Source: Methanofastidiosum sp. (GTDB lineage Archaea; Methanobacteriota_B; Thermococci; Methanofastidiosales; Methanofastidiosaceae). From it: DNA of 64,000 nucleotides. Shown one piece after another: positions 3,232 to 32,759 of the stretch. Below the pieces are notes generated by a model, which saw nothing but the letters and a program-made list of their open reading frames with translations, searched no databases and was not told the DNA's origin. The DNA lies in assembly GCA_039679445.1 (NCBI GenBank), contig JBDKUY010000026.1, positions 28,523 to 92,522 on the forward strand, written 5' to 3'. A program made the translations under genes and the position numbers. Each line of letters starts with the position of its first letter. Within the stretch, counting starts at the first letter, position 1.

Positions 3232-3306
3232 GCGGTCATAGTGTAGTGGTTAGCACTTGAGCCTTCCAAGCTCATGACGCGGGTTCGAATCCCGCTGGCC
3301 GCACCA
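3232..3306 (+). tRNA. tRNA-Gly (anticodon UCC), CCA encoded
   Basis: Cloverleaf: 7-bp acceptor GCGGUCA/UGGCCGC, anticodon stem UGAGC/GCUCA with loop CUUCCAA, T-arm GCGGG-UUCGAAU-CCCGC, discriminator A. Confidence 0.9.
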
Positions 3307-3518: not shown

Positions 3519-4943
3519 CTAGTTATTCTTTTCTTTGTTCTTTTTCAGTATTTCCAGTATTATTGGTATAGCGGAGCTCCTATCAGATGCCTGTCTGTAT
3601 GATATTGCCTTTTGGACATTTATCAATCCTGCACCTTGATCATACTGTCCCGCATTTGGTATTGGGCTTGCAGTTCTCATTAAGGCTTCTTTTACTTGGT
3701 AAGGTGTCCAGTTGGGGTGCCTTTGAATAATTAATGCGCATGCTCCTGCTACTATTGGGGTTGCAAAACTTGTCCCGCTGACCCCTGCTTGATAACTACT
3801 ATCCGAATAGGCGTGTGCCGTGAACATGTCTACTGCTGATGCAACAATGTCAGGCTTTGCTCTCCCATCTAATGTTGGCCCCCTTGAAGAGCAGCCCGAA
3901 GGACCGCCCACGCAGTACATCTGGTATGGGTATACGAGGGTGAATATCCAGTTGTCGTCCACAACTGTAAAAGTCCTGTCTTTTATCCCGCCTACGGTAA
4001 TTACCTTTGAAGCATCACCAGGTATATCAATAGTCTGGGGATCTGGGCCATCATTTCCTGCCGCTATGCAAACGACCAATCCAGCATCCATCATTGAGTT
4101 TGCCATCTGGCTTTGTGGATTTGAACCATCGTTTTGGCCTTCGAATCCAAAACTCATATTGACTACCCTAATGTTATATTTGTTCTTATTGTCTATGCAC
4201 CACTGCATTCCTGCCATTATCTGGGACGACGATCCGTTGCCGCTTGCATCAAATACTTTCAATGGCACTAACTTCGCACCAGGGGCTACCCCTAGATAGT
4301 TGCTTGATGTTGCCGACAACTGCCAATTTGGTGGCCACGAAGATGCAGCCATAGAATTTCCACAAATCAGCGAGGAGACTTCGGTGCCGTGACCATTGTC
4401 ATCACTTGCATTTGAATCGTTATTAACAAAATCATATTCCGCCACTACTTTGTTAGGGAATTCTTGATGTGTTTTTCTAAGCCCCGTGTCTAAAACAGCG
4501 ACCACAATGCCCGTTCCTGTATATCCTTGACTCCTAACAGGTGTGGCCTTAATAATATCATTTGCTATGTAGCCTTTAATTGTAACTTCATCTTGATTTG
4601 CGGTAGAAACACCTTCGGCCAAGGTAACAATATCATCCGCCCATATCCTTACAACATAAGGATTTGAGGCCATTGATTTTATGTCCTCTGAGCCTAATGT
4701 CATGGCCACTGAATTAATCGAAGGGTACTCATATTTCATCGGCTTTCCAGTATTTGCAATTATCTTTTTTGCAGTTCCGTCAAGATTTGTAAATTGTACG
4801 ATAACGGCTATGCTACTCTCCCCACGTTCGACCTTTTCTTTTACTTTTGGATCCATTTTGCTCCAATCTATGTCGTCCCCTAAAACTGGAACAAGGGATA
4901 ATAAGAGTAAGCTAATTATTATAATTCCTATTTTTCTTTTCAT
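3519..4943 (-). CDS. Secreted subtilisin-like serine protease (peptidase S8)
   Basis: N-terminal signal peptide (MKRKIGIIIISLLLLSLVPVLG). Catalytic triad motifs are present: VAVLDTG (Asp), HGTEV (His), GTSFATP (Ser). Confidence 0.88.
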   Translation of the reverse strand: MKRKIGIIIISLLLLSLVPVLGDDIDWSKMDPKVKEKVERGESSIAVIVQFTNLDGTAKKIIANTGKPMKYEYPSINSVAMTLGSEDIKSMASNPYVVRIWADDIVTLAEGVSTANQDEVTIKGYIANDIIKATPVRSQGYTGTGIVVAVLDTGLRKTHQEFPNKVVAEYDFVNNDSNASDDNGHGTEVSSLICGNSMAASSWPPNWQLSATSSNYLGVAPGAKLVPLKVFDASGNGSSSQIMAGMQWCIDNKNKYNIRVVNMSFGFEGQNDGSNPQSQMANSMMDAGLVVCIAAGNDGPDPQTIDIPGDASKVITVGGIKDRTFTVVDDNWIFTLVYPYQMYCVGGPSGCSSRGPTLDGRAKPDIVASAVDMFTAHAYSDSSYQAGVSGTSFATPIVAGACALIIQRHPNWTPYQVKEALMRTASPIPNAGQYDQGAGLINVQKAISYRQASDRSSAIPIILEILKKNKEKNN

Positions 4944-5042
4944 ATTCCTTCACCCCTATTGCTAATAATTAATGACAGTAATGCTTTACTAATATATAAG
5001 CGTTGCTGTTAATTTGTGGGAATTTGCACTCCACGATGCATA

Positions 5043-5258
5043 TCACTGTGACTTCTCATCATCTAGCTTAATGTTCTTATTAGAAAAATCATAATTTAAA
5101 GCTTGGCGAAATATTTGGTAGAAAACACACATCTTTTGGGCGATATCAACTCTTTCATGATAAACGGAATAGTCACCTTTTTCGATTAGTCGTACCACTA
5201 GTTCAGCATCGTCTGCTTAATCATCAACTATCAGTACTTTAAGTTGTGTCTTGCCCAT
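5043..5258 (-). pseudogene. Response-regulator receiver remnant with an in-frame TAA
   Basis: Reverse strand reads MGKTQLKVLIVDD-TAA-ADDAELVVRLIEKGDY... The TAA at 5217-5219 sits where receiver domains have the conserved Glu of the DDE motif. The remaining reading is only about 71 codons and loses receiver-like sequence after about 35 aa. An AGGAGA Shine-Dalgarno-like motif precedes the ATG at 5258. Confidence 0.6.
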
Positions 5259-5296
5259 TTACTTCTCCTTTGAATACAATATATGATTCTAAATAA

Positions 5297-6760
5297 CTAT
5301 GCTTTCTTAAATTTTAATACAAACACAGCACCGTTCGGCTTGTTGTCTTCAACTTCGATTGTTCCGCCGTATCGCTCCATGACTTTCTTCACAATATATA
5401 GTCCATGGCCCGAGCCCCTGGATCGCCGAAGCTTTCTCCTTCACCGAATATTTTGTCTTTTATATCGTCAGGTATGCTTTTTCCGTAATCTGCAATTCTC
5501 AATTCGCCGTTGTCATCAATTGATATGTCAATTCTATCAGTCTTTCCATGGACAATAGCATTCCTGATAATGTTATCTATGACAGAATATATGACCTCAT
5601 CACATAAAGCAGCGCAGTCTCCTGTGACGCTGAATTTGATATCGGGTAGTTTTTCACCACGCTTTCAGCTACACTTCTCAGTGATTTTTCAGAAAGGTCT
5701 TCATCAGAGATAAAAGCGTTTTCAAGCTCCCTCATCTGTTCTATTAGAGAAACACTCTTCTTCAGCGCTTTGGCCACCTTTAGTTTCAATCTTTGATCAT
5801 CTACTTGAATCATATCACATGCTGACATTACAACAGTCAGATCGTTTAGAATGTCATGCCTTAGAATCTTATTTAAAACTCCTAGTGCTTCGTTTAAGCT
5901 GTTTATTTTTTCTTCGGCTTTCTTTTTTTCGGTGATATCGTGCAGAACTATTAATTGACCCATAAAATGATTTTTTTTATCAAATATTTTTTTAGTGTAA
6001 TCTCGTAGAATTTATCTTCTTGAAAGACTACTCCATGGTAATCATCATCGGAAACATGGGTATTAAAAGCATCACTAAGTTCTTTCCATTTGGTTACTAT
6101 ATCTTGAAATTTTTTACCACGAATATTTGAGATTTTTACATTGAAAATAGTTTCTGCCGAATGATTAAGTTCTAAAACTTGATTGATACCTCCTAGGACT
6201 ATAACACTATCAGGGATTTCATGAAAAACTGCCGAATAGGCAGTCGGAATTATGTCCAATAGCATCTCTCTTGTAATACCACAAAATAACACTATACCTG
6301 TAATGGCAAATGAAATAGAAGTCACATCTATGGGGAATTTAACTATGCGGGAAACATAGAAGAAATTGGCAATCCATGAAATAAAAATACCTAAAAGGAA
6401 GATCATGGTTTGTTTTCTGTATATATTTTGGCAGATTCCAAGCGCATAAAATATTAATACCGTACTTAATAGTACTAAACAATAAATATAAATAAATTGT
6501 ATCCAAAACCAAGTGCCATATACCTTACCTAAAGCCAACACACCAGAAATATTTTCGATGAAGATTGATTGTTTTATAAGGTGATGATACTCATTAGTCC
6601 AAACTAAAATTATTGTGATAGCAGGTATTATCGATAATAATGCTATAGTGAAACGATTTACAAACTCTCCTTTTCCAGTATATTCTAATACAAATAGAAT
6701 TAAGAATATCGAAAAAAGTGGCCTTAGAAAGAGTTGAAAGAAACAAAACAGCTGTAACAA
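5297..6760 (-). pseudogene. Sensor histidine kinase pseudogene, paralog of the intact kinase at 11416-13107, with at least 3 frameshifts
   Basis: Three consecutive reverse-strand reading frames carry successive segments colinear with the intact paralog: the membrane region ORF 5951-6760, the HisKA H-box ORF 5577-5963 (ILRHDILNDL), then HATPase_c pieces in two further frames (IRNAIVHGKTDRIDISIDDNGELRIADYGKSIPDD, then GSGHGLYIVKKVMERYGGTIEVEDNKPNGAVFVLKFKKA). The N-terminal roughly 80 aa present in the paralog are missing or overlapped by the upstream gene. Confidence 0.8.
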
Positions 6761-7456
6761 AATGAATCAAGTTAAATGCTATGATCCACTTCACAGTTCC
6801 TTTAATGCCATAAAGAACTGTTATGGCATTCATTTTTCTGACTATATCGTTTTTTACATCAATCAAATCATTTAATCCAAGATGAGATAGGGCAAGTGGG
6901 TAAAAGAAAAGGAAAAACAATAATGCTGTATTGTCAGGAGCGCCTACACAAAGATACCCAGCGACAGGAAATATTGCGAAGTCAGTTCTTCCTAGAACTT
7001 GCGCAAACGGATATTTTTGATTTCTTTTTTTTACCTGATAAAAATACTCCATAAAGTAACAGTAGAGGTAAATTAACAAGACATAAAGGGAATTTGGATA
7101 AGGAAGTGTCAGAATCAAAGAGACAGTTATAATGAAAAATAAGAAAAACAATCTAAATGCGTTCTTTGATGTTATATCTCCAAAAGGGAGAGGCCGAGAT
7201 TTATAGGGCCCCAATAGTAAGTTAACTTATCATACTCCACATCGTTTTTGTCAATATCTCTATCAACATAATCATTTAATATCATTCCACCTTCAAAACC
7301 AAAAAGTCCTATCAAAATAGCTTTAATGACTAGCGTCCAAGAAAATCCGCCGTAGTTTTGGAATCCCAAAAATAAGCCAGAACAGAATATCAAAGGCCAA
7401 GCAAACATGAAATGGGCCCTTGTAAGATCAATGTAGGATTTGAAAGTTTGGTTCAC
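6594..7456 (-). pseudogene. UbiA-family prenyltransferase (DGGGP synthase-like) with a frameshift
   Basis: ORF 7172-7456 carries the first Asp-rich motif (NDYVDRDIDKND). A +1 frame from about 7214 carries the expected RPLPFG and the second motif DLIDVKND (ORF 6594-7214). The frame change lies near the GGGGCCC run at 7204-7212. Total length is about 300 aa, typical for the family. Confidence 0.65.
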
Positions 7457-7531
7457 TAAATCTCCTTATTTAAAGCAAAGTATATGCCAGTTTAAAATAT
7501 TAATTGTCATAAAATGGCAAATAAATAAAAA

Positions 7532-10276
7532 TTATAATTCTTTCATTCCCAATTTCGGCATTAAGTATTTTCTTAATTCATCTACTACAAATATCAATAA
7601 TGCAAACGGTATAATCAATAATACTAGCTCAGGTTCTATCGATGCAGTTCCAAGAAAAGTCTTGAAGACTGGAAGATTTGTGAAAGCTAAAATCAAAATT
7701 ATCTCACTCGCTATCCCCAAAAATACGTATTTATTTTTAAAAAAGCCCATCTTAAATATAGAATTTCTAAGGCTTCTGCAACCCATAACATTCACGATTT
7801 GACAGACAATTATGGCGATGAGGCACATTGTTGTAGCCTTTAAATACAGCGGATCCGTAAATGCTAACTGTGTTCCCCACGTCCAGCCACCTTGTTTTAA
7901 TACCCACCAGAATCCATACAATCCTGCAGCGGCTTCGATTGGCCCTATAAGTCCATATGATTTTAGTATTAATGGCACAGTTAGAAGCCTGTCTTTTCTA
8001 GAACGCGGTGGCCTTTCCATCACATCTATTTCAGCAGGCTCTGTTCCAAGCGCAATTGCTGGAAGCATATCTGTACCTAAATCTATTGCCAATATTTGAA
8101 TAACTGTAAGTGGAAGGGGAACTCTAAAGAGCACAAATACGATAAATGGAACTATTTCAGGCACATTACTAACTAAGATGTAAGAAATAAACTTCCTGAT
8201 ATTATCATAGACTGCCCTGCCCTCAAGTACCGCTTCCACTATGCTCTTAAAATTGTCATCTATTAGTATCACATCTGCAGCTTCTTTGGCCACATCTGTG
8301 CCACTTCCCATTGATATACCAATATCTGCTTCTTTTAATGCTGGAGCGTCATTTACTCCATCCCCTGTAACGGCCACAACTTCTCCCATCTGTTTTAATG
8401 CCATAACTATGTCAAGTTTATTCTTTGGGGAAGATCTTGCAAAAATAATTTCTTGATTCTTTAATATATTTTTTAATTCTTCTAGCCCCAGATTATTGAC
8501 ATCTGCTCCATCTACCACAGTAGGATTTCCACTTTCAATTATCCCTACATCTCGCCCAATGGCTTCAGCTGTTAGTTTATTATCTCCTGTTATCATTATG
8601 ACTTTAATTCCAGCACCCTTGCATTTTTTAACTGCCTCTTTGACCCCAAGCCTAGAAGGATCAATCATCCCAATCAAGCCTAAAAATACTAAATCTTTTT
8701 CTACATCTTCGGCAACATATTTTTCTTTTTCACTAACAGGTCTGTACGCAAGAGCTAAAGTTCTCAAAGCTTTCTTTTCAAAACTTTCAGCTTTGTCGTG
8801 GAGATTCTGTTTATCTTGTGGAGTTAAATCAATTTCTTTTCCGTTTATCAATATCTTGTTCGACAAAGAAATAATTGACTCTGGAGAACCTTTAACATAA
8901 GCTGTAGTTGTTTCTCCTTTGTATACTGTGCTCATCATTTTTCTATCGGATGTGAAAGGTATTTCAAAGATCCTTTCTTCTAATTGGCATGTTGTATCTG
9001 TGTCTATGATTTTCTTAGCCAAAACTAAAAGTGCACCTTCTGTCGGGTCCCCAATTAAAGAGTACTTGTCTTCATCTAAAGTTAATTTTGAATTATTACA
9101 GAAGAAGGAAGTTTTTAGAAAAGGAATTATTGGCTCAATTTCTTTTCCTTCAACTTCCTTTCCATCTATATGGAGCTTTCCTTCAGGTTTATACCCAACT
9201 CCAGAAACGTCAATCTCTTTATCGTTGACGAATATTTTCTTAACAGTCATTTCATTTTGGGTAAGAGTCCCAGTTTTATCTGTGCATATCACTGTTGTAG
9301 ACCCGAGAGTTTCAACAGAATTTAGATTCTTTATCAAGGCATTTTTCTTTGCCATTTTTTGGGCGGCTATGGACAGAGTCAAAGTAACTGTAGGAAGTAG
9401 GCCTTCTGGAACGTTAGCAACAATTATTCCTATCCCAAAAATAAAATTTGCTGTGAAGGTATTCCCTAGAGACCATCCTATTAAAAAGAATGTTATTCCT
9501 AGAAAAATTGCAATAATAGATATGTATTTTATAAAATAAGATATTTCTTTTTGTAAAGGAGTTGGATCATCTTTTATTTCTTGAGTAAGGCCTGCAATTT
9601 TTCCAAATTCTGTTCCCATACCTACGGCAAATACTATAGCTTTCCCAGAACCTGAAACTACAGTAGTTCCTGAAAACACAACGTTGCTTGACCCAAGTAT
9701 ATCCCCCTTAAACTGATCTATATTTCTTTTAAGAGACTTTGATTCCCCAGTTAAAGGCGAGTTATTGACCTTCAATTCATACTGTTCGATTAATCTTGCA
9801 TCGGCAGGTACTTTATCCCCCTCAGATAAAATAATAACATCCCCAACAACAACTTGATTTGAAGGGATTTCCTGCTCTTTATTGTCTCTTAATACTACTG
9901 CCAAAGGTGCCAATAGCTTTTTTAGTGCCTCGGCCGCTCTTTCGGCCTTATACTCTTGGTAAAAAGTAAAAAAGGCGTTGATAAAAATTACGGCGACTAA
10001 TGCAATTCCAAGATTAATGTTACCTTCTCCGGGGGCTAGATATTCGCCAATAAATGAAAGTCCGCTTGCAACCCAAAGTAAAATAGCAAAGAAATTAAAA
10101 AATTGTTTTAATAATTTAACGTACAGCGGAGTAATTCTTTTCTCTTGGATTTCGTTTGGGCCAAAGGATACAAATCTTTTTTCAACTTCATCTTTAGAAA
10201 GACCTTCTTTGGAGGATTGAAGATTTTTGATAGCTTCTTCTACCGACAGCTCATGAATATCTTTTATTTGCTCCAT
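7532..10276 (-). CDS. P2-type cation-transporting P-type ATPase (Ca2+/Na+-ATPase-like)
   Basis: 914 aa with DKTGTLT phosphorylation motif, PEGL, TGDN and GDGVNDAPAL, and 10 predicted TM segments. Confidence 0.9.
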   Translation of the reverse strand: MEQIKDIHELSVEEAIKNLQSSKEGLSKDEVEKRFVSFGPNEIQEKRITPLYVKLLKQFFNFFAILLWVASGLSFIGEYLAPGEGNINLGIALVAVIFINAFFTFYQEYKAERAAEALKKLLAPLAVVLRDNKEQEIPSNQVVVGDVIILSEGDKVPADARLIEQYELKVNNSPLTGESKSLKRNIDQFKGDILGSSNVVFSGTTVVSGSGKAIVFAVGMGTEFGKIAGLTQEIKDDPTPLQKEISYFIKYISIIAIFLGITFFLIGWSLGNTFTANFIFGIGIIVANVPEGLLPTVTLTLSIAAQKMAKKNALIKNLNSVETLGSTTVICTDKTGTLTQNEMTVKKIFVNDKEIDVSGVGYKPEGKLHIDGKEVEGKEIEPIIPFLKTSFFCNNSKLTLDEDKYSLIGDPTEGALLVLAKKIIDTDTTCQLEERIFEIPFTSDRKMMSTVYKGETTTAYVKGSPESIISLSNKILINGKEIDLTPQDKQNLHDKAESFEKKALRTLALAYRPVSEKEKYVAEDVEKDLVFLGLIGMIDPSRLGVKEAVKKCKGAGIKVIMITGDNKLTAEAIGRDVGIIESGNPTVVDGADVNNLGLEELKNILKNQEIIFARSSPKNKLDIVMALKQMGEVVAVTGDGVNDAPALKEADIGISMGSGTDVAKEAADVILIDDNFKSIVEAVLEGRAVYDNIRKFISYILVSNVPEIVPFIVFVLFRVPLPLTVIQILAIDLGTDMLPAIALGTEPAEIDVMERPPRSRKDRLLTVPLILKSYGLIGPIEAAAGLYGFWWVLKQGGWTWGTQLAFTDPLYLKATTMCLIAIIVCQIVNVMGCRSLRNSIFKMGFFKNKYVFLGIASEIILILAFTNLPVFKTFLGTASIEPELVLLIIPFALLIFVVDELRKYLMPKLGMKEL

Positions 10277-11415: not shown

Positions 11416-13107
11416 TTAATTCCCCACACATTTTAATTTTATGATAAAAGTAGCCCCTTTTGGTTTATTGTCTTCTAATTTAATAGTGCCACCGTATCTT
11501 TCGATTGTCTTTTTAACAATATAAAGACCTAGTCCACTACCCTTACTTTCTCCAAAGCTTAAACCTTCCTCAAATACATTATCTTTTATGTCGTCTGGGA
11601 TACCCTTCCCATAATCTGTTATTCGTATTTCACATGTTTTGCTTTTTGAAGTGGTGATATCTACATCTATTCTATCTGTTTTCCCATGAATTATTGCATT
11701 CCTCATAATATTTTCAAACACAGAAAATAGTGCCTGATCTGCTAATGCAGTCGCATCACCAGTTATATTAATTGAGGAGATGTGTAAATTAGTAGATACG
11801 TCTTCCGCTATTTTTCTTACATTTATTGGAATTAATTCTCCTTTATTAAGCACAAAAGATTCAAGTTCCCTAATTCTTTCGATTAGCTCAATACTACCAT
11901 CGACTGAACGATCTAACTTACCAAGTAAGGCTTTATCTTTTTTTTCTTCATAAAGCCACAAGGAAGATTTCATGACGGCCAATTTATTTAGAAGATCATG
12001 CCTAAGTATTTTGTTAATTACTTGTAATGTTTCGTTTAGCTCTTCAATTTGTTTATTTGATTTTATTAATTTGTCTTCCATTTTTTTACGATTAGTAATA
12101 TCATGTAGTGCAATAAGATGCCCAATTAAGAAATTATTAGAATCATAAATATCTGAAACATCCATCTCATAAGTTTTTGTTCCTTTGAATAGATTAGTTT
12201 TATTGAGGTGACTTTTAGATTGTAAATTCTGGTATTCTCTATTGAGTTCAGGCCATTTGTCAGAAATTTGGTCAAATTTTTTACCACAAATACTACTACT
12301 AGTTATACCAAGAGTTTTTTCCATAGAAGGATTGATTTCTACAATTTGATTTAGTCTCCCCAAAACTATATACGAATCGTTCATATTTTTAAAAACATTC
12401 ATGTACGCTGTGGGCACTATGTCCAACAGCTGGTACTTTGTTATTCCAATTAGTAAGACTACACCCATTAAAGAAAAAGAAACCGAAGTGAAGTCTAAAG
12501 GCGAGATTATTATCCTAGATAAATGAATCAAATTTGCTGTCCAAGTTATGAATATGGCTATTATAAATGTTATTTTTTGCTTCCTATTGATGGAATTCGA
12601 TAGATTGAAGGACTGAAACAATAAAAATATTCCGAGAATAATTAAAGAATAAAAAAATATTATAAACAGCCAAAATAAGGGCCCATACACCTTACCAAAA
12701 GCTAAAACCCCGGATATTTCTATAAGAAAGATACTGCTTCTGAATAAGTGATGGTACTGATTTGTCCAGACAATTATCAGAGTAGCTAATGAAAATAAAG
12801 ACATTAAAAGAATTAAACTCTTACCAATATACTTTGATTTTCCAGAGTATTCAAAAACAAATAATATCCATGAAACTGGGAATATTGAAATAGCTATATA
12901 AGAGATATTATCCCAAAACAATTTATTTGGAAGTGACGTGCTCCCAAGATTCAATAGATCTGCCAATGCCCATACAAAGGCAGCTGTAATACAAATAGTC
13001 AAGTAACGGCTTCCAGGTGATTGTTCCCTTTTTAAAAGAATGTATATCACTATGGCTGACACTAAACAACTTAACAATAATGGTATCTGGTATACTGTAA
13101 ACTGCAT
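11416..13107 (-). CDS. Membrane-bound sensor histidine kinase (intact)
   Basis: 563 aa with about 6 N-terminal TM helices, a HisKA H-box (ILRHDLLNKL) and HATPase_c N, G1 and G2 motifs (NAIIHG, DYGKGIP, GSGLGLYIV). Confidence 0.88.
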   Translation of the reverse strand: MQFTVYQIPLLLSCLVSAIVIYILLKREQSPGSRYLTICITAAFVWALADLLNLGSTSLPNKLFWDNISYIAISIFPVSWILFVFEYSGKSKYIGKSLILLMSLFSLATLIIVWTNQYHHLFRSSIFLIEISGVLAFGKVYGPLFWLFIIFFYSLIILGIFLLFQSFNLSNSINRKQKITFIIAIFITWTANLIHLSRIIISPLDFTSVSFSLMGVVLLIGITKYQLLDIVPTAYMNVFKNMNDSYIVLGRLNQIVEINPSMEKTLGITSSSICGKKFDQISDKWPELNREYQNLQSKSHLNKTNLFKGTKTYEMDVSDIYDSNNFLIGHLIALHDITNRKKMEDKLIKSNKQIEELNETLQVINKILRHDLLNKLAVMKSSLWLYEEKKDKALLGKLDRSVDGSIELIERIRELESFVLNKGELIPINVRKIAEDVSTNLHISSINITGDATALADQALFSVFENIMRNAIIHGKTDRIDVDITTSKSKTCEIRITDYGKGIPDDIKDNVFEEGLSFGESKGSGLGLYIVKKTIERYGGTIKLEDNKPKGATFIIKLKCVGN

Positions 13108-23356: not shown

Positions 23357-24358
23357 ATGTTCAAAGAAATACCTCGTATAGATATAGACGAGATAGTGGA
23401 TAAGGCATTTAGAAATGCTAAGAAAAAAGCCCTCTCTAGTAAAAAAAATATCAATGAGATTGTTAAAGAGAAAGAATCGATTAGAGTTACGGTTGCTGGA
23501 GAAAATTTAGCAGAGTCTGTTTTCAAAGTTGTAGAGAGATACCCTTCGTTTGATAGATTACCACCATTTACAAGAGAGTTGATAGATGTAATTGTTGGCA
23601 TAGATAAATTAAGACACAATTTAGGTGCTCTTTCTTTTGCAGTGAATACAATTAACGCGGTTAAGATAGAGTATATAAAAAATATTAGAAGGGCAAAGTC
23701 CTCTCAGGATGCATCATTTCTGAGAAAACAGTGCTATGGGAGATATATCTCAATATTAAAACAAGTAGAAAAAAATCTAAAATTTTTGAATAATGCACGA
23801 GAGAAACTAAAAAATCTTCCTTCAATAAATCCTGATTTATACACGGTAGTCATTGCAGGATTTCCAAATGTAGGTAAATCTTCACTACTAAAAGCCTTAA
23901 CTAATTCTGAACCTGAAATTAATTCTTATCCATTTACAACAAAAGGAATTAATGTTTCCTCATTTACCTACAATAAAAGAAAGATCCAGGTTGTAGATAC
24001 ACCCGGGCTATTAGATAGAGAACTTAGCTATAGGAATCCAATTGAACTACAAGCTATATCTGCATTGAAGTATCTTGCAAAATTAATTTTATTTGTCTTT
24101 GATCCAACTGAATCATGCGGTTACACCATGGCAGACCAGATGAACCTATATAATGAAATATCTGAGAGTTTTGTAGGCGTTCCATTTATAAAGGTTTTAA
24201 ATAAAACAGATTTAAAAGATTGGGGTTTTAAAGACGACGTGGGGGGCATAAAAATATCTGCTCAAGAAGGGTCAAATATAGACATCTTGAAAAAAAATAT
24301 TGAAGATATACTTTTCAAGTATTTTGAAGAAGAGGTGGATTACTTTGAAAAAGATTGA
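23357..24358 (+). CDS. NOG1-family GTP-binding protein
   Basis: 333 aa with G1 GFPNVGKSS, G3 DTPG and G4 NKTD motifs, and an N-terminal NOG1-like domain. Confidence 0.85.
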   Translation: MFKEIPRIDIDEIVDKAFRNAKKKALSSKKNINEIVKEKESIRVTVAGENLAESVFKVVERYPSFDRLPPFTRELIDVIVGIDKLRHNLGALSFAVNTINAVKIEYIKNIRRAKSSQDASFLRKQCYGRYISILKQVEKNLKFLNNAREKLKNLPSINPDLYTVVIAGFPNVGKSSLLKALTNSEPEINSYPFTTKGINVSSFTYNKRKIQVVDTPGLLDRELSYRNPIELQAISALKYLAKLILFVFDPTESCGYTMADQMNLYNEISESFVGVPFIKVLNKTDLKDWGFKDDVGGIKISAQEGSNIDILKKNIEDILFKYFEEEVDYFEKD

Positions 24359-24833
24359 GCCTATAACAAAAGGACTTACTGGTTTTTTAAGAAGTTTCAA
24401 GAAGATTGTAGAGGATATTGATGAAGGAAAAGAAATTAAGAAAATAGTATTTACTGGAAATCCTTACACTTGCACCCCAATAATTGAACTATTAAGTTAT
24501 GCTATTAGAGAGATGAACAAAGAATTAATTTTTGTTCCGTCGCTTAATATTAATGACCCTTATAAGATGAATCTTTCGGATATTCATTTTGATTTTGTTA
24601 AAGGTGGAAATCCGCTTAACCCAGATTTAAATGTTATACTGGGGGGCCTTGCTATGCGAGGAGGCCCAGATGTAGGTAATGTCAATAGTTTTTTAGAAAA
24701 AATAGGCAACAAAGAAAAAAAGATTGTCGGCGTATGTTTTATGAGCGTTATTGAAAAGGCAGGTTGGTGCGAAGTTGTGCCTTTTGACTATCTGATTGAT
24801 ATACAAATGGATGGTTCATTGTACGGTAGATAA
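24337..24833 (+). CDS. Hypothetical protein (about 165 aa) immediately upstream of ycaO
   Basis: The ORF is tightly packed with ycaO (TAA, 1 nt, ATG). The probable start is TTG near 24337, because the ORF-track ATG at 24300 overlaps nog1. There are 4 Cys residues and no family recognised by eye. Confidence 0.45.
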
Positions 24834-24834
24834 A

Positions 24835-26088
24835 ATGGAACTCAAAAGCTGTAAAAAACAATACATGAAGGATACTCACAGAGCTATCCCCCCAGAAGAA
24901 ACGCTAGAAATCGTCAAAGATAAACTCGATATATGTGGAATCACTAGAGTTGCAGATATAACTGATCTGGATAGACTTGGGATCCCAGTTTTCTCCGCCG
25001 TACGGCCTGACGCATCACAGGGCTCAGTGTCAGTCTATAACGGAAAAGGCGTATCTAAAACTGAGGCGGAGGTATCTGCGATAATGGAAGGTATCGAAAG
25101 ATATTCTTCTGAAGTTAATGAAGAGATGATTTTAGATTCTTCAGAATCTGAATTGAACGGGAAAGTAAATCATTTGTCCCCTTATGAATTAGCATTGCCC
25201 GCCCAAGAGATGTATAACGAATATATAAAAATAGGGTGGGTTAAAGGTTACGATCTTATTAGGAAAGAAGAAATCTATGTGCCTGCAAATTCTGTATTTC
25301 ATCCCTATCCTCTAAAAAGAGATTACCCCCTTTTCAGAACAAACACAAATGGATTGGCTTCTGGGAATACTTTAGAGGAAGCAATTTTTCATGGTCTATG
25401 TGAAGTTATTGAAAGAGACGCATGGTCTCTTGTTGAGATGAAAAGAACTTTCCCCAAGGATCTTATAATTGAGATAAATGATCCTTTACTTGAAGATTTT
25501 CTCAATAGATTTAAGGAAAATGAAATAGAAATTGTTTTTAAAGATATTACTTCTGATGACATAAAAGTTCCAACAATACTTGCTGCAATTGATGATTTGA
25601 GATTAAAGGATCCAACTCTTATGGTAATGGGGATGGGAACTCATATCGACCCGAAAGTAGCCTTATACCGTGCGATAACTGAAGCAGCACAATCAAGATT
25701 GACCCAAATTCACGGTGCTAGAGAAGACACTCAGAAAGCAGAAATGAAAAGAAGGATAGGCTATGACCGTATCAGAAAACTAAACTGGTATTACTTAAAT
25801 AAATTTGGAGTTGAGACAAAGACTTCTGATTTCACAGCTAAAGCTTCAGATGATATCCTAGAAGACATTAATACATTATTAGATATTTTAACTAAGAATG
25901 GAATTAACAGAGCAATCGTTGTTGATCTCACAAGAAGCGAACTTGGAATACCTGTGGTAAGAGTTCTTATTCCTCAACTTGAACAGTATGGTATTGATAA
26001 CTCAAGAATTGGATCAAGAGGGCGGATGAGAGAAGTTGATAAAAATTATTATCTATTTGGGCCCAAGCCTTCCTCTAGAAGAGGCTAA
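24835..26088 (+). CDS. ycaO: YcaO-domain protein (ATP-dependent backbone thioamidation/cyclodehydratase family)
   Basis: YcaO blocks GKGVSKTEAEVSAIMEGIERYS and NGLASGNTLEEAIFHGLCEVIERDA are present. The start is MELKSCKK at 24835. Confidence 0.88.
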   Translation: MELKSCKKQYMKDTHRAIPPEETLEIVKDKLDICGITRVADITDLDRLGIPVFSAVRPDASQGSVSVYNGKGVSKTEAEVSAIMEGIERYSSEVNEEMILDSSESELNGKVNHLSPYELALPAQEMYNEYIKIGWVKGYDLIRKEEIYVPANSVFHPYPLKRDYPLFRTNTNGLASGNTLEEAIFHGLCEVIERDAWSLVEMKRTFPKDLIIEINDPLLEDFLNRFKENEIEIVFKDITSDDIKVPTILAAIDDLRLKDPTLMVMGMGTHIDPKVALYRAITEAAQSRLTQIHGAREDTQKAEMKRRIGYDRIRKLNWYYLNKFGVETKTSDFTAKASDDILEDINTLLDILTKNGINRAIVVDLTRSELGIPVVRVLIPQLEQYGIDNSRIGSRGRMREVDKNYYLFGPKPSSRRG

Positions 26089-26695
26089 ATATATTTTGTC
26101 TTCAGATAAGAAAAGGGAAGTTGTCTACGCCCCTCCAATTAAACGAGGAGATATTCCAAAGGCTGTTTCAGAAGGTTTTGATATAATTGGAATTATTGAT
26201 GGGGTTTTCTTTAGGGAAAGTGCTGTATCGCCTAGAGAGTTAATGGAAGTTCTAAAGAGTGGCGTAAAAATATATGGTGCTTCGAGTATGGGTGCTTTAC
26301 GCGCTTCAGAACTTGATAGGTATGGAATGATAGGAGTTGGAAAAATTTATCAGTGGTATCGGGGCGGAATCCTAAATTCTGATGATGAAGTCGCATTATC
26401 CTTTGATAGTGAAGAATTTATCCCAATATCAGAACCTCTTGTAAATATTAGAGAGACAATAAAAAAAGCCACTAATCAGAATATAATAAGTCCAGAAGAA
26501 TCAGAAATACTCTTCAAATCAGCAAAAAGTTTGTATTTCCCAGAAAGACGATGGAATAAGATAATTGAAAACTCAGAAAAAATATTAGGTAATAAACTTT
26601 CTAATTTTTCCCTATTTGTTAAGAGCAACAGAGTGGATATAAAGAAAGAAGATGCTATCCTTCTTCTTAAAAAGATAGATGAGGATTCGAAATAG
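26036..26695 (+). CDS. tfuA: TfuA-like protein (YcaO partner)
   Basis: MIKIIIYLGPSL...IGIIDGVFF...GASSMGALRASEL matches TfuA domain conservation. It overlaps the ycaO 3' end by 53 nt in another frame. Confidence 0.85.
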   Translation: MIKIIIYLGPSLPLEEAKYILSSDKKREVVYAPPIKRGDIPKAVSEGFDIIGIIDGVFFRESAVSPRELMEVLKSGVKIYGASSMGALRASELDRYGMIGVGKIYQWYRGGILNSDDEVALSFDSEEFIPISEPLVNIRETIKKATNQNIISPEESEILFKSAKSLYFPERRWNKIIENSEKILGNKLSNFSLFVKSNRVDIKKEDAILLLKKIDEDSK

Positions 26696-31389: not shown

Positions 31390-31701
31390 TTATTTTTTAT
31401 TTGTCTTTTTCTTTAGAGGTATATCAAAGTTCATGTCTTTTAGTGTGTCTGTTTTTACAATGGCTTTTACTTTTTCAAGCCCAGAGGTTAGTGATTCATC
31501 AATCTTCAGCCTGTAGACGATAATACCGAGCTGTTCATAACTTTTAACAATGTCTTCATTGTATACTGGGATATCAATTTTAATAGGTTCATCTGTTGGG
31601 TTACCAACGATTATGTCCCTATATCCTAGTTTTGCGACATTTTCTACAATATAGCCACCCATGTTCTGGACATCTTTTGGGAAAAGAATAAATTTAGCCA
31701 T
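31390..31701 (-). CDS. Small hydrophilic hypothetical protein at the 3' end of the hydrogenase operon (EhbP-like position)
   Basis: About 103 aa from MAKFILFPKD. The start is tightly juxtaposed to the NuoH-like gene stop at 31704. The ORF-track start at 31845 would overlap that gene. Confidence 0.4.
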   Translation of the reverse strand: MAKFILFPKDVQNMGGYIVENVAKLGYRDIIVGNPTDEPIKIDIPVYNEDIVKSYEQLGIIVYRLKIDESLTSGLEKVKAIVKTDTLKDMNFDIPLKKKTNKK

Positions 31702-31703
31702 TT

Positions 31704-32759
31704 TTACATCACCGCCAATAGAGATAATACAATTGTAAGGAATCCAAGTGCTGTGAATCCCATTGAAACTGGGTAGATTTGCTTGAAAGTAAATATAGGT
31801 GAGAATGCAGATACTATCGAGAATAGTATTGGCATTATCAAACAAAGTAAGCAGTGTACTAATAGTAAAGGTAAATTAAGTGTCGGTGGAAGCCCTATGA
31901 ACAAAGTTATGAAAACGCTTGAGAGTACAAATAGTATTGATTCTCTCATTAAGTAGTATCCCCCTCTTGCCCAAGCTGCATACTCTAATGATGGTCCCTC
32001 GATTACATCTGATTTAGCTTTTTCAATGCTGAATGGATATTCGTTTAGTAACATAATGTACCCAATGAAGTAAACAAATCCGGCTAACATTCCAGGGAAT
32101 GTAAATAGGATTGGCTTTAGACTCAATATTTTATTAAGGTACATTAAATCAATCAATCCACCTGGATAGATGAATGAAGCATCAAATCCTTGGAATTGAA
32201 CTATGTCGGAGAAATTAATTGATTTTGCTAGAACTACGGGTACGAACATTGCAAGATATAGTGGAAATGATCCCACAGTAATCATCTTAAATGCCCTTAT
32301 CACGCTCTGTTGCTCAAAGAATCTTCTATATTCCCCTTTCATGACTGCACCTTTAATCTGGTCTGCATACGGCATTGAAACAGATAGAATAGATCTTGAA
32401 AAGCTACCAATAGCCATAAACAAAAACTCTATTACTTTTAGTAAACCAACTACCGCTACAACTGTTCCTAGCGCATTTACGCCCCACCAGTCTGGTGTTG
32501 TAAAGAGGGCAGCAAAAAACATCACAAATATTCCAATTATAGGTAGACTGTGGAATAATCTTGGCATTGGTGAATTTGGTTTAATCTTTTCTTTATAGAA
32601 GAACTTAAGAATTGCCCAGAAACCAGGTGTAAGCATAGGTGGCCCTATCCTCTGCTGTATCCTAGCCTGAACTTTCCTTTCAAGACCGGGTATAACGAAT
32701 CCAGTAATTAATGCTGCCAATGGAATAAGTATCGTTGCAAGTATAAGTTCAATCATCAT
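31704..32759 (-). CDS. Energy-converting hydrogenase integral membrane subunit, NuoH/HyfC/EhbO/MbhM-like
   Basis: 351 aa with about 8 TM helices and NuoH-family character. It overlaps the large-subunit stop by 4 nt. Confidence 0.75.
   Translation of the reverse strand: MMIELILATILIPLAALITGFVIPGLERKVQARIQQRIGPPMLTPGFWAILKFFYKEKIKPNSPMPRLFHSLPIIGIFVMFFAALFTTPDWWGVNALGTVVAVVGLLKVIEFLFMAIGSFSRSILSVSMPYADQIKGAVMKGEYRRFFEQQSVIRAFKMITVGSFPLYLAMFVPVVLAKSINFSDIVQFQGFDASFIYPGGLIDLMYLNKILSLKPILFTFPGMLAGFVYFIGYIMLLNEYPFSIEKAKSDVIEGPSLEYAAWARGGYYLMRESILFVLSSVFITLFIGLPPTLNLPLLLVHCLLCLIMPILFSIVSAFSPIFTFKQIYPVSMGFTALGFLTIVLSLLAVM

Follow-up and report, generated by a model that had tools for sequence, protein, structure and literature searches.

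Ordinary unitary pseudogenes of prokaryotes arise by deletion and by the accumulation of frameshifts. The HisKA_7TM sensor histidine kinases combine an N-terminal seven-transmembrane (7TM) domain (PF16927) with PAS, DHp and HATPase_c (PF02518) domains, and proteins of 559–563 aa with this architecture include P0002, P0003, P0011 and the product of 11416-13107 in the window (the entire 64,000-nt stretch of DNA analyzed here). A literature search on histidine kinases of Methanofastidiosa returned nothing relevant. Positions 5297-6718 of the window (minus strand) follow the same domain order, and the remnant encoded there and the 559–563-aa proteins are both recognizable by VWTN.YHH, an RHD H-box, an N box and a G2 box, with 47–61% identity between them. 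Unlike those proteins, the remnant is devoid of a start and of its first 75 codons, contains three frameshifts and has the G1 glycine changed to serine. On sequence grounds, we regard it as the relic of a Candidatus Methanofastidiosum membrane sensor histidine kinase, very probably a non-functional unitary pseudogene.

With the intact 563-aa kinase as the tblastn query against window positions 4900-7600, four colinear minus-strand matches were obtained (joint E value of 2e-97), covering query residues 75-315 (45% identity), 320-455 (41%), 447-534 (50%) and 523-559 (73%). The initial annotation had described colinear, frameshift-broken kinase pieces 4.7 kb from an intact kinase and had named non-colinear pieces as a ground for refutation; the alignment bears out that description, as all pieces occur in order. 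The motif pairs it quoted for remnant and neighbor are likewise all present in the translations (VWTNEYHH and VWTNQYHH, NKILRHDILNDL and NKILRHDLLNKL, IRNAIVHGKTDRIDI and MRNAIIHGKTDRIDV, and GSGHGLYIVKK and GSGLGLYIVKK). The features of the two kinase loci are listed below, with L001 (also L095) denoting ENA contig ERZ25039527 contig_109270.

5297..6718, minus strand: whole kinase remnant, pieces of a HisKA_7TM/HATPase_c sensor histidine kinase
5987..6718, minus strand: segment 1, 3′ three-quarters of HisKA_7TM and PAS-like module 1, 95% nucleotide identity to L001 10225-11031
5647..5986, minus strand: segment 2, the last part of PAS1, the S-box and DHp, whose H-box NKILRHDILNDL has its His codon at 5856-5858
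5424..5646, minus strand: segment 3, N box (IRNAIVHGKTDRIDI) and G1 box, DYGKS where the family has DYGKG
5297..5423, minus strand: segment 4, G2 box (GSGHGL, not GSGLGL) through the TAG stop
11416..13107, minus strand: intact 563-aa HisKA_7TM/HATPase_c kinase, same strand as the remnant and 4.7 kb apart

Each of the three frameshifts is a net change of −1 nt, which returns segment 4 to the frame of segment 1; the remnant thus occupies four segments but three frames, rather than the at least four frames counted initially. Its 5′ limit also had to be revised from 6760, as kinase homology begins at 6716-6718 and bases 6719-6760 are out-of-frame UbiA sequence. Repair with one N at each frameshift site gave a reading of 474 codons that ends in TAG with zero internal stops, and homologs of this repaired 474-aa reading came almost entirely from Candidatus Methanofastidiosum and Methanofastidiosa metagenome-assembled genomes (MAGs).

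Measured against a working kinase, the remnant is deficient in several respects. Its Pfam match to HisKA_7TM (PF16927) is limited to profile positions 61-224 of 224, versus positions 2-224 plus HATPase_c in the intact neighbor, so the N-terminal 7TM domain is incomplete by Pfam coverage, in line with homology to L001 that starts only at codon ~76. There is no single ORF with its own start, the coding sequence being dispersed over four segments in three frames, and the sole upstream start is a TTG inside the out-of-frame UbiA sequence. The phospho-acceptor histidine of the H-box NKILRHDILNDL (codon 5856-5858) and the N box are present; the G1 and G2 boxes are altered and frameshift 3 splits the domain that contains them. 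When 119 kinase cores were aligned, two residues of the remnant deviated from columns conserved at ≥95%, namely the second glycine of G1 (DYGKS where at least 95% of the 118 relatives have G) and the leucine of G2 (GSGHGL where at least 95% have L). No such departures were seen in the intact neighbor or in P0043, yet 18 of the 119 cores show two or more, so the motif changes lend only mild support. The remnant would be unable to encode a protein belonging to the HisKA_7TM kinases. No product made from it is predicted to work as a kinase, because the first 75 codons are absent and the DHp domain with its histidine is in a different frame from the ATP-binding domain.

The nearest relatives of the remnant are two adjacent ORFs on the single contig L001/L095. 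P0019 (741 aa, 7TM and PAS modules) shares 89.5% amino acid and 95% nucleotide identity with the sensor half of the remnant, and P0043 (299 aa, DHp and HATPase_c) shares 78.6% and 83%, respectively, with its kinase core. By position and sequence, the remnant corresponds to a predicted larger 7TM-PAS(x5)-DHp-HATPase_c gene of ~1,040 codons in L001; there, as in the window, the kinase slot is flanked by the P-type ATPase/UbiA genes on one side and by tRNA-Gly/hisG on the other. Gene order on L001/L095 is 7TM kinase (559 aa), 79-aa ORF, Usp, P-type ATPase, UbiA#1, UbiA#2, SBP-PAS kinase, response regulator, RR-PAS kinase, MazE, the 7TM-PAS ORF (741 aa) and the HATPase ORF (299 aa), tRNA-Gly, hisG and hisD. 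Window and L001 were aligned by blastn in four blocks:

Window 9497-6713, L001 1-2789, 89% identity
Window 6716-5911, L001 10225-11031, 95% identity
Window 5939-5293, L001 12511-13168, 83% identity
Window 3459-1, L001 13180-16631, 93% identity

Homology at the 3′ end of the kinase continues through the stop codon. The initial annotation had proposed a search of related genomes for an intact ortholog at this locus; a counterpart was found there in L001, but two +1 insertions ~108 nt apart in its PAS module 5 (L001 12200-12330; ‘CCAcGAA’ and ‘CAGaGGA’) break this copy, too, into the ORFs of 741 and 299 aa. The split may represent independent decay or a long-read error, and the contig names hint at a long-read assembly. 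A gene for a type I restriction R subunit is broken into several ORFs in L011, a further contig from this sample. No demonstrably intact ortholog of the remnant was found, the L001 copy carrying its two insertions, and a scan of metagenome contigs with the repaired protein gave a best identity of 52% and no intact ortholog, with known near-identical contigs missed as well. The L001 7TM-5xPAS kinase differs from the remnant in retaining its 5′ end and the 7.4 kb of genes upstream and in having four PAS modules more; it has two +1 insertions of its own and none of the three deletions of the remnant.

The comparison with L001 defines the following lesions of the remnant and of the sequences on either side:

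6713..6716, minus strand: junction of a ~7.4-kb deletion with TTTT microhomology, joining the UbiA#1 3′ region (L001 2789) to kinase codon ~76 (L001 10225)
5987..5993, minus strand: frameshift 1, an A7 run versus A8 in L001, the only lesion in a long homopolymer
5911..5939, minus strand: S-box junction (HDITEKKKAEEK), PAS module 1 joined straight to DHp, PAS modules 2-5 absent
5646..5647, minus strand: frameshift 2, one T lost (AACTA-CCCGAT versus L001 AACTATCCCGAT), no homopolymer
5423..5424, minus strand: frameshift 3, one A lost (GGCG-ATCC versus L001 GGCGAAACA)
6714..7456, minus strand: UbiA prenyltransferase pseudogene, 1-nt deletion at 7206-7208 (C3 versus C4 in L001), last ~50 codons lost
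5043..5258, minus strand: possible response-regulator remnant (MGKTQLKVLIVDD, stop, ADDAELVVRLIEKGDY...; stop, ADDAELV...), in-frame TAA at 5217-5219

At the 6713-6716 junction, ~7,435 bp of L001 sequence are absent. From the kinase, this deletion takes away the first 75 codons (the first ~60 of 224 HisKA_7TM positions) with the start codon and the sequence upstream, and the UbiA#1 3′ end, UbiA#2, MazE and three further genes of two-component systems are lost with them; the loss of ~50 codons from the UbiA 3′ end and the loss of the kinase 5′ end are one shared event. At the S-box junction, 1,508 nt of L001 are absent, and because that L001 stretch holds two extra bases, the gap amounts to 1,506 nt, or exactly 502 codons in frame. 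One further 9-nt in-frame indel separates remnant and L001. Small indels do break the reading frame, as first reported, but the most destructive lesion is the ~7.4-kb deletion, and both this deletion and the absent 502-codon PAS block were missing from the original list.

Over ~40 residues, the sequence at 5043-5258 resembles the start of a receiver domain, and similarity is lost thereafter; its sole support, a match to a small receiver hidden Markov model (HMM) built for this analysis, scored 12 bits. It had no Response_reg match in Pfam, no homolog in an index of 5.8 billion proteins, no tblastn match in any compared locus and, by blastp-short, none among the L001 regulators; we tentatively assign it as a response-regulator relic. 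Other ORF pairs that overlap on one strand of the 64-kb window were checked, and each proved to consist of distinct intact genes, among them those for NOG1, DUF2124, YcaO, TfuA, EhbP, an ECF S component, a methylase/HemD fusion and an NADH-dehydrogenase-like subunit. Broken genes are thus limited to 5043-7456 (2.4 kb), with none seen in the remaining ~61 kb. Elsewhere in the window, genes for a NOG1-type GTPase, DUF2124, YcaO and TfuA stand in a row at 23357-26695 (plus strand), all apparently intact, and EhbP and the NADH-dehydrogenase-like subunit at 31390-32759 (minus strand) look like energy-converting hydrogenase subunits, also apparently intact.

The interval between UbiA and tRNA-Gly differs among the compared genomes. 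M. methylothiophilum U1lsi0528_Bin055 (L006) and UBA9950 contig_31432 (L007) both have the order ATPase-UbiA#1-UbiA#2-tRNA-Gly-hisG, with both UbiA genes full length and the kinase cluster absent. The interval is thus empty in these two, holds a five-gene signaling cluster in L001 and contains the kinase relic, the response-regulator-like scrap and a subtilisin gene in the window. Three features mark out this part of the window:

3519-4943, minus strand: intact 474-aa subtilisin (Peptidase_S8) between the relic and tRNA-Gly, with a hydrophobic N terminus like a signal peptide
3232-3306, plus strand: tRNA-Gly(TCC), bordering the variable segment
13249-13324, minus strand: tRNA-Glu(CTC), just upstream of the intact kinase

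The subtilisin gene belongs to the strain-variable segment, as it is absent from that position in L001, L006 and L007. Rfam detected only the two tRNAs as RNA families in the window. An att-like repeat of a tRNA-Gly fragment was found in none of the window, L001, L006 and L007, which gave chance 7–10-mers only, and no integrase was present among the called genes at the compared loci. With neither an integrase nor a directly repeated tRNA 3′ end, a tRNA-integrated mobile island was rejected. The MAG UBA9950 contains two hisG loci (L004, L007; DUKX01000057.1, DUKX01000243.1) that are 99% and 89% identical to that of the window; given these two different loci, the bin mixes two Methanofastidiosum strains or species.

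Divergence across the region is uneven. Using the Nei–Gojobori method on the window versus the L001 genome, dS was 0.25–0.33 for the ATPase, Usp, HisG and HisD genes (omega of 0.06–0.10), 0.10 for the kinase sensor half (omega of 0.34), 0.53 for the kinase core (omega of 0.17) and 0.95 for UbiA#1 (omega of 0.08), the last being three to four times the dS of the flanking core genes. The omega values of the remnant, 0.34 and 0.17, are only mildly raised and well below 1, in a small sample (35 and 91 differences) in which the L001 copy may be decaying too. The very uneven dS argues for a mosaic, recombinant history of the region, and that of the remnant would include recombination or gene conversion. 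A second mosaic is seen in P0002 (L095 5842-7521), which is the positional ortholog, in the L001 genome, of the intact kinase of the window. Its sensor half matches the remnant type at 72.5% amino acid identity and the neighbor in the window at only 41%, whereas its core half has 72.6% identity to the neighbor and 50.5% to the remnant. The type switches at the S-box, as at the PAS gap of the remnant, which suggests module exchange between the remnant locus and the neighbor locus.

Several other readings of the remnant were weighed. That the gene is intact in the organism, with the frameshifts and junctions being homopolymer miscalls or a mis-join, might be entertained for a sequence from a metagenome-assembled genome in which one of the four single-base lesions (three in the kinase, one in UbiA) falls in an A7 run. 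Such an artifact is hardly conceivable, as eight further assemblies, drawn from several projects and sequencing runs, are 99.8–100% identical to the window and gap-free over 5043-7456, and each reproduces every lesion it covers. These comprise two JGI metagenomes (L002 and L003; 3300002220 and 3300000558), two ENA assemblies (L096 and L100; ERZ922796 and ERZ922797) of SRR636559 and SRR636597 from a hydrocarbon metagenome project, Logan SRR636569 (L097), ENA ERZ27315067 (L098) and Logan SRR15035648 (L094 and L099). All lesions are spanned by L002 and L098, the single gap of the latter being intergenic (~3324). Several of the assemblies differ from the window by SNPs (for example, T/C at 5602), which identifies them as separate reconstructions of slightly different strains. 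Agreement among the eight independent assemblies excludes sequencing error, the check for which had been called for on raw reads and was here run on assemblies; in addition, the other three single-base lesions lie outside runs of five or more bases and all lesions are concentrated in the 2.4 kb of an otherwise unbroken window. The fragments could instead still function as a split or truncated sensor, made by separate translation or programmed frameshifting from the 269-aa ORF at 5951-6760 and the 128-aa DHp ORF at 5577-5963. These ORFs are long and have been deposited at NCBI as separate proteins (MEN6378828.1 and MEN6378827.1), the correct frames have as yet no nonsense codon and dN/dS is below 1. 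We nonetheless find a split sensor very unlikely. The first 75 codons, encoding the first ~60 of 224 HisKA_7TM positions, are lost and the 269-aa ORF starts at the TTG within out-of-frame UbiA sequence. The ATP-binding domain is cut in two with its G1 glycine replaced, the three frameshifts have the same direction in unrelated contexts unlike programmed slippery sites, and the flanking UbiA gene and response-regulator-like sequence are broken too. The evidence favors a genuine, population-fixed pseudogene in what appears to be a decaying, strain-variable stretch.

The origin of this pseudogene was initially seen as a recent duplication of the neighboring kinase 11416-13107, later broken by indels. 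The two share family, domain order, strand and similar conserved motifs at a distance of 4.7 kb, but recent duplication is extremely improbable. Identity to the neighbor, described as high, is 47.4% in amino acids over 485 columns, 56.2% in nucleotides and 36% at third positions, and pS is 0.78, where a recent duplicate would show unsaturated synonymous sites and high nucleotide identity. The saturated synonymous sites and large divergence refute recent duplication. More than 30 database kinases are nearer to the remnant than the neighbor is (amino acid identities of 89.5% for P0019, 78.6% for P0043, 61% for P0002 and 54–59% for the 559-aa family, against 47.4% for the neighbor), and the sensor half is 95% identical in nucleotides to another gene at the orthologous position in L001. 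Of the first account, the pseudogene and its shared family with the neighbor stand and the recent duplication falls; the neighbor is an old paralog and not the source. The neighbor itself is maintained, as had been stated, being 100% identical in several assemblies and having a 76%-identical ortholog in M. methylothiophilum. A different proposal concerns the PAS array. The short 7TM-PAS1-DHp-CA form could be ancestral, with L001 having gained four PAS modules and the core of the window deriving from a different allele or paralog, a scheme that we consider possible but lean against. The 559–563-aa family has exactly the short architecture, the remnant core shows roughly the same similarity to P0043 (79%), P0049 (82%) and P0044 (80%), the core dS of 0.53 is five times the sensor-half dS of 0.10, and L001 11417-11797 is 77% identical in amino acids to a PAS module of P0049 from the same genome. 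Against this, the in-frame gap with S-box-repeat ends fits either direction and L001 homology at the 3′ end extends through the stop codon; moreover, the scheme concerns one step only and leaves the pseudogene verdict unaffected. P0049 and P0015, the closest kinase cores, were also considered as an explanation for the origin of the core half and set aside, since their gene context is unrelated to the remnant locus.

The lesions can be ordered into a plausible course of inactivation of the unitary pseudogene. In the lineage of the window, a ~7.4-kb deletion at 4-nt microhomology would have fused a truncated UbiA to kinase codon ~76; the junction is attributed to a deletion in this lineage because both cut genes exist full length elsewhere (in L001, and for UbiA#1 and UbiA#2 also in L006 and L007). 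This deletion by itself would have killed the kinase gene, and the frameshifts and the G1 and G2 motif changes would then have built up neutrally. Inactivation was probably fairly recent, with most of the divergence gained under constraint, given the lack of nonsense codons in 474 codons and a dN/dS versus L001 below 1. In its truncating microhomology deletion, excess of small deletions over insertions, decaying neighbors and strain-variable surroundings, the remnant resembles ordinary unitary pseudogenes of prokaryotes, its only oddity being the exactly in-frame loss or gain of the PAS array at S-box repeats. It is an ordinary dead gene and leaves current understanding unchallenged.

The main use of these results is in annotation. 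In the public record, which places these ORFs on a 104-kb Methanofastidiosum sp. contig, the 7TM fragment of the remnant is a 252-aa ‘histidine kinase N-terminal 7TM domain-containing protein’ (MEN6378828.1), the DHp fragment is a 128-aa ‘hypothetical protein’ (MEN6378827.1) and the intact neighbor is MEN6378834.1. The first two entries ought to be merged into a single pseudogene, with the same treatment for the UbiA fragments next to them. Biologically, the gain is modest: strains of this uncultured methyl-reducing methanogen lineage vary in what lies between UbiA and tRNA-Gly/hisG. As a minor lead, S-box-mediated module shuffling of sensor kinases appears to have taken place at the remnant interval. 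The in-frame 502-codon gap ending in S-boxes, the P0002 mosaic and the five-fold dS contrast between the two halves raise the idea, which we put forward tentatively as falling short of an even chance, that the conserved S-box closing each PAS module may act as a recombination joint through which Methanofastidiosum kinases swap or drop whole sensor modules. If this were true generally, the remnant would be a by-product of an active module-shuffling region and not of simple decay.
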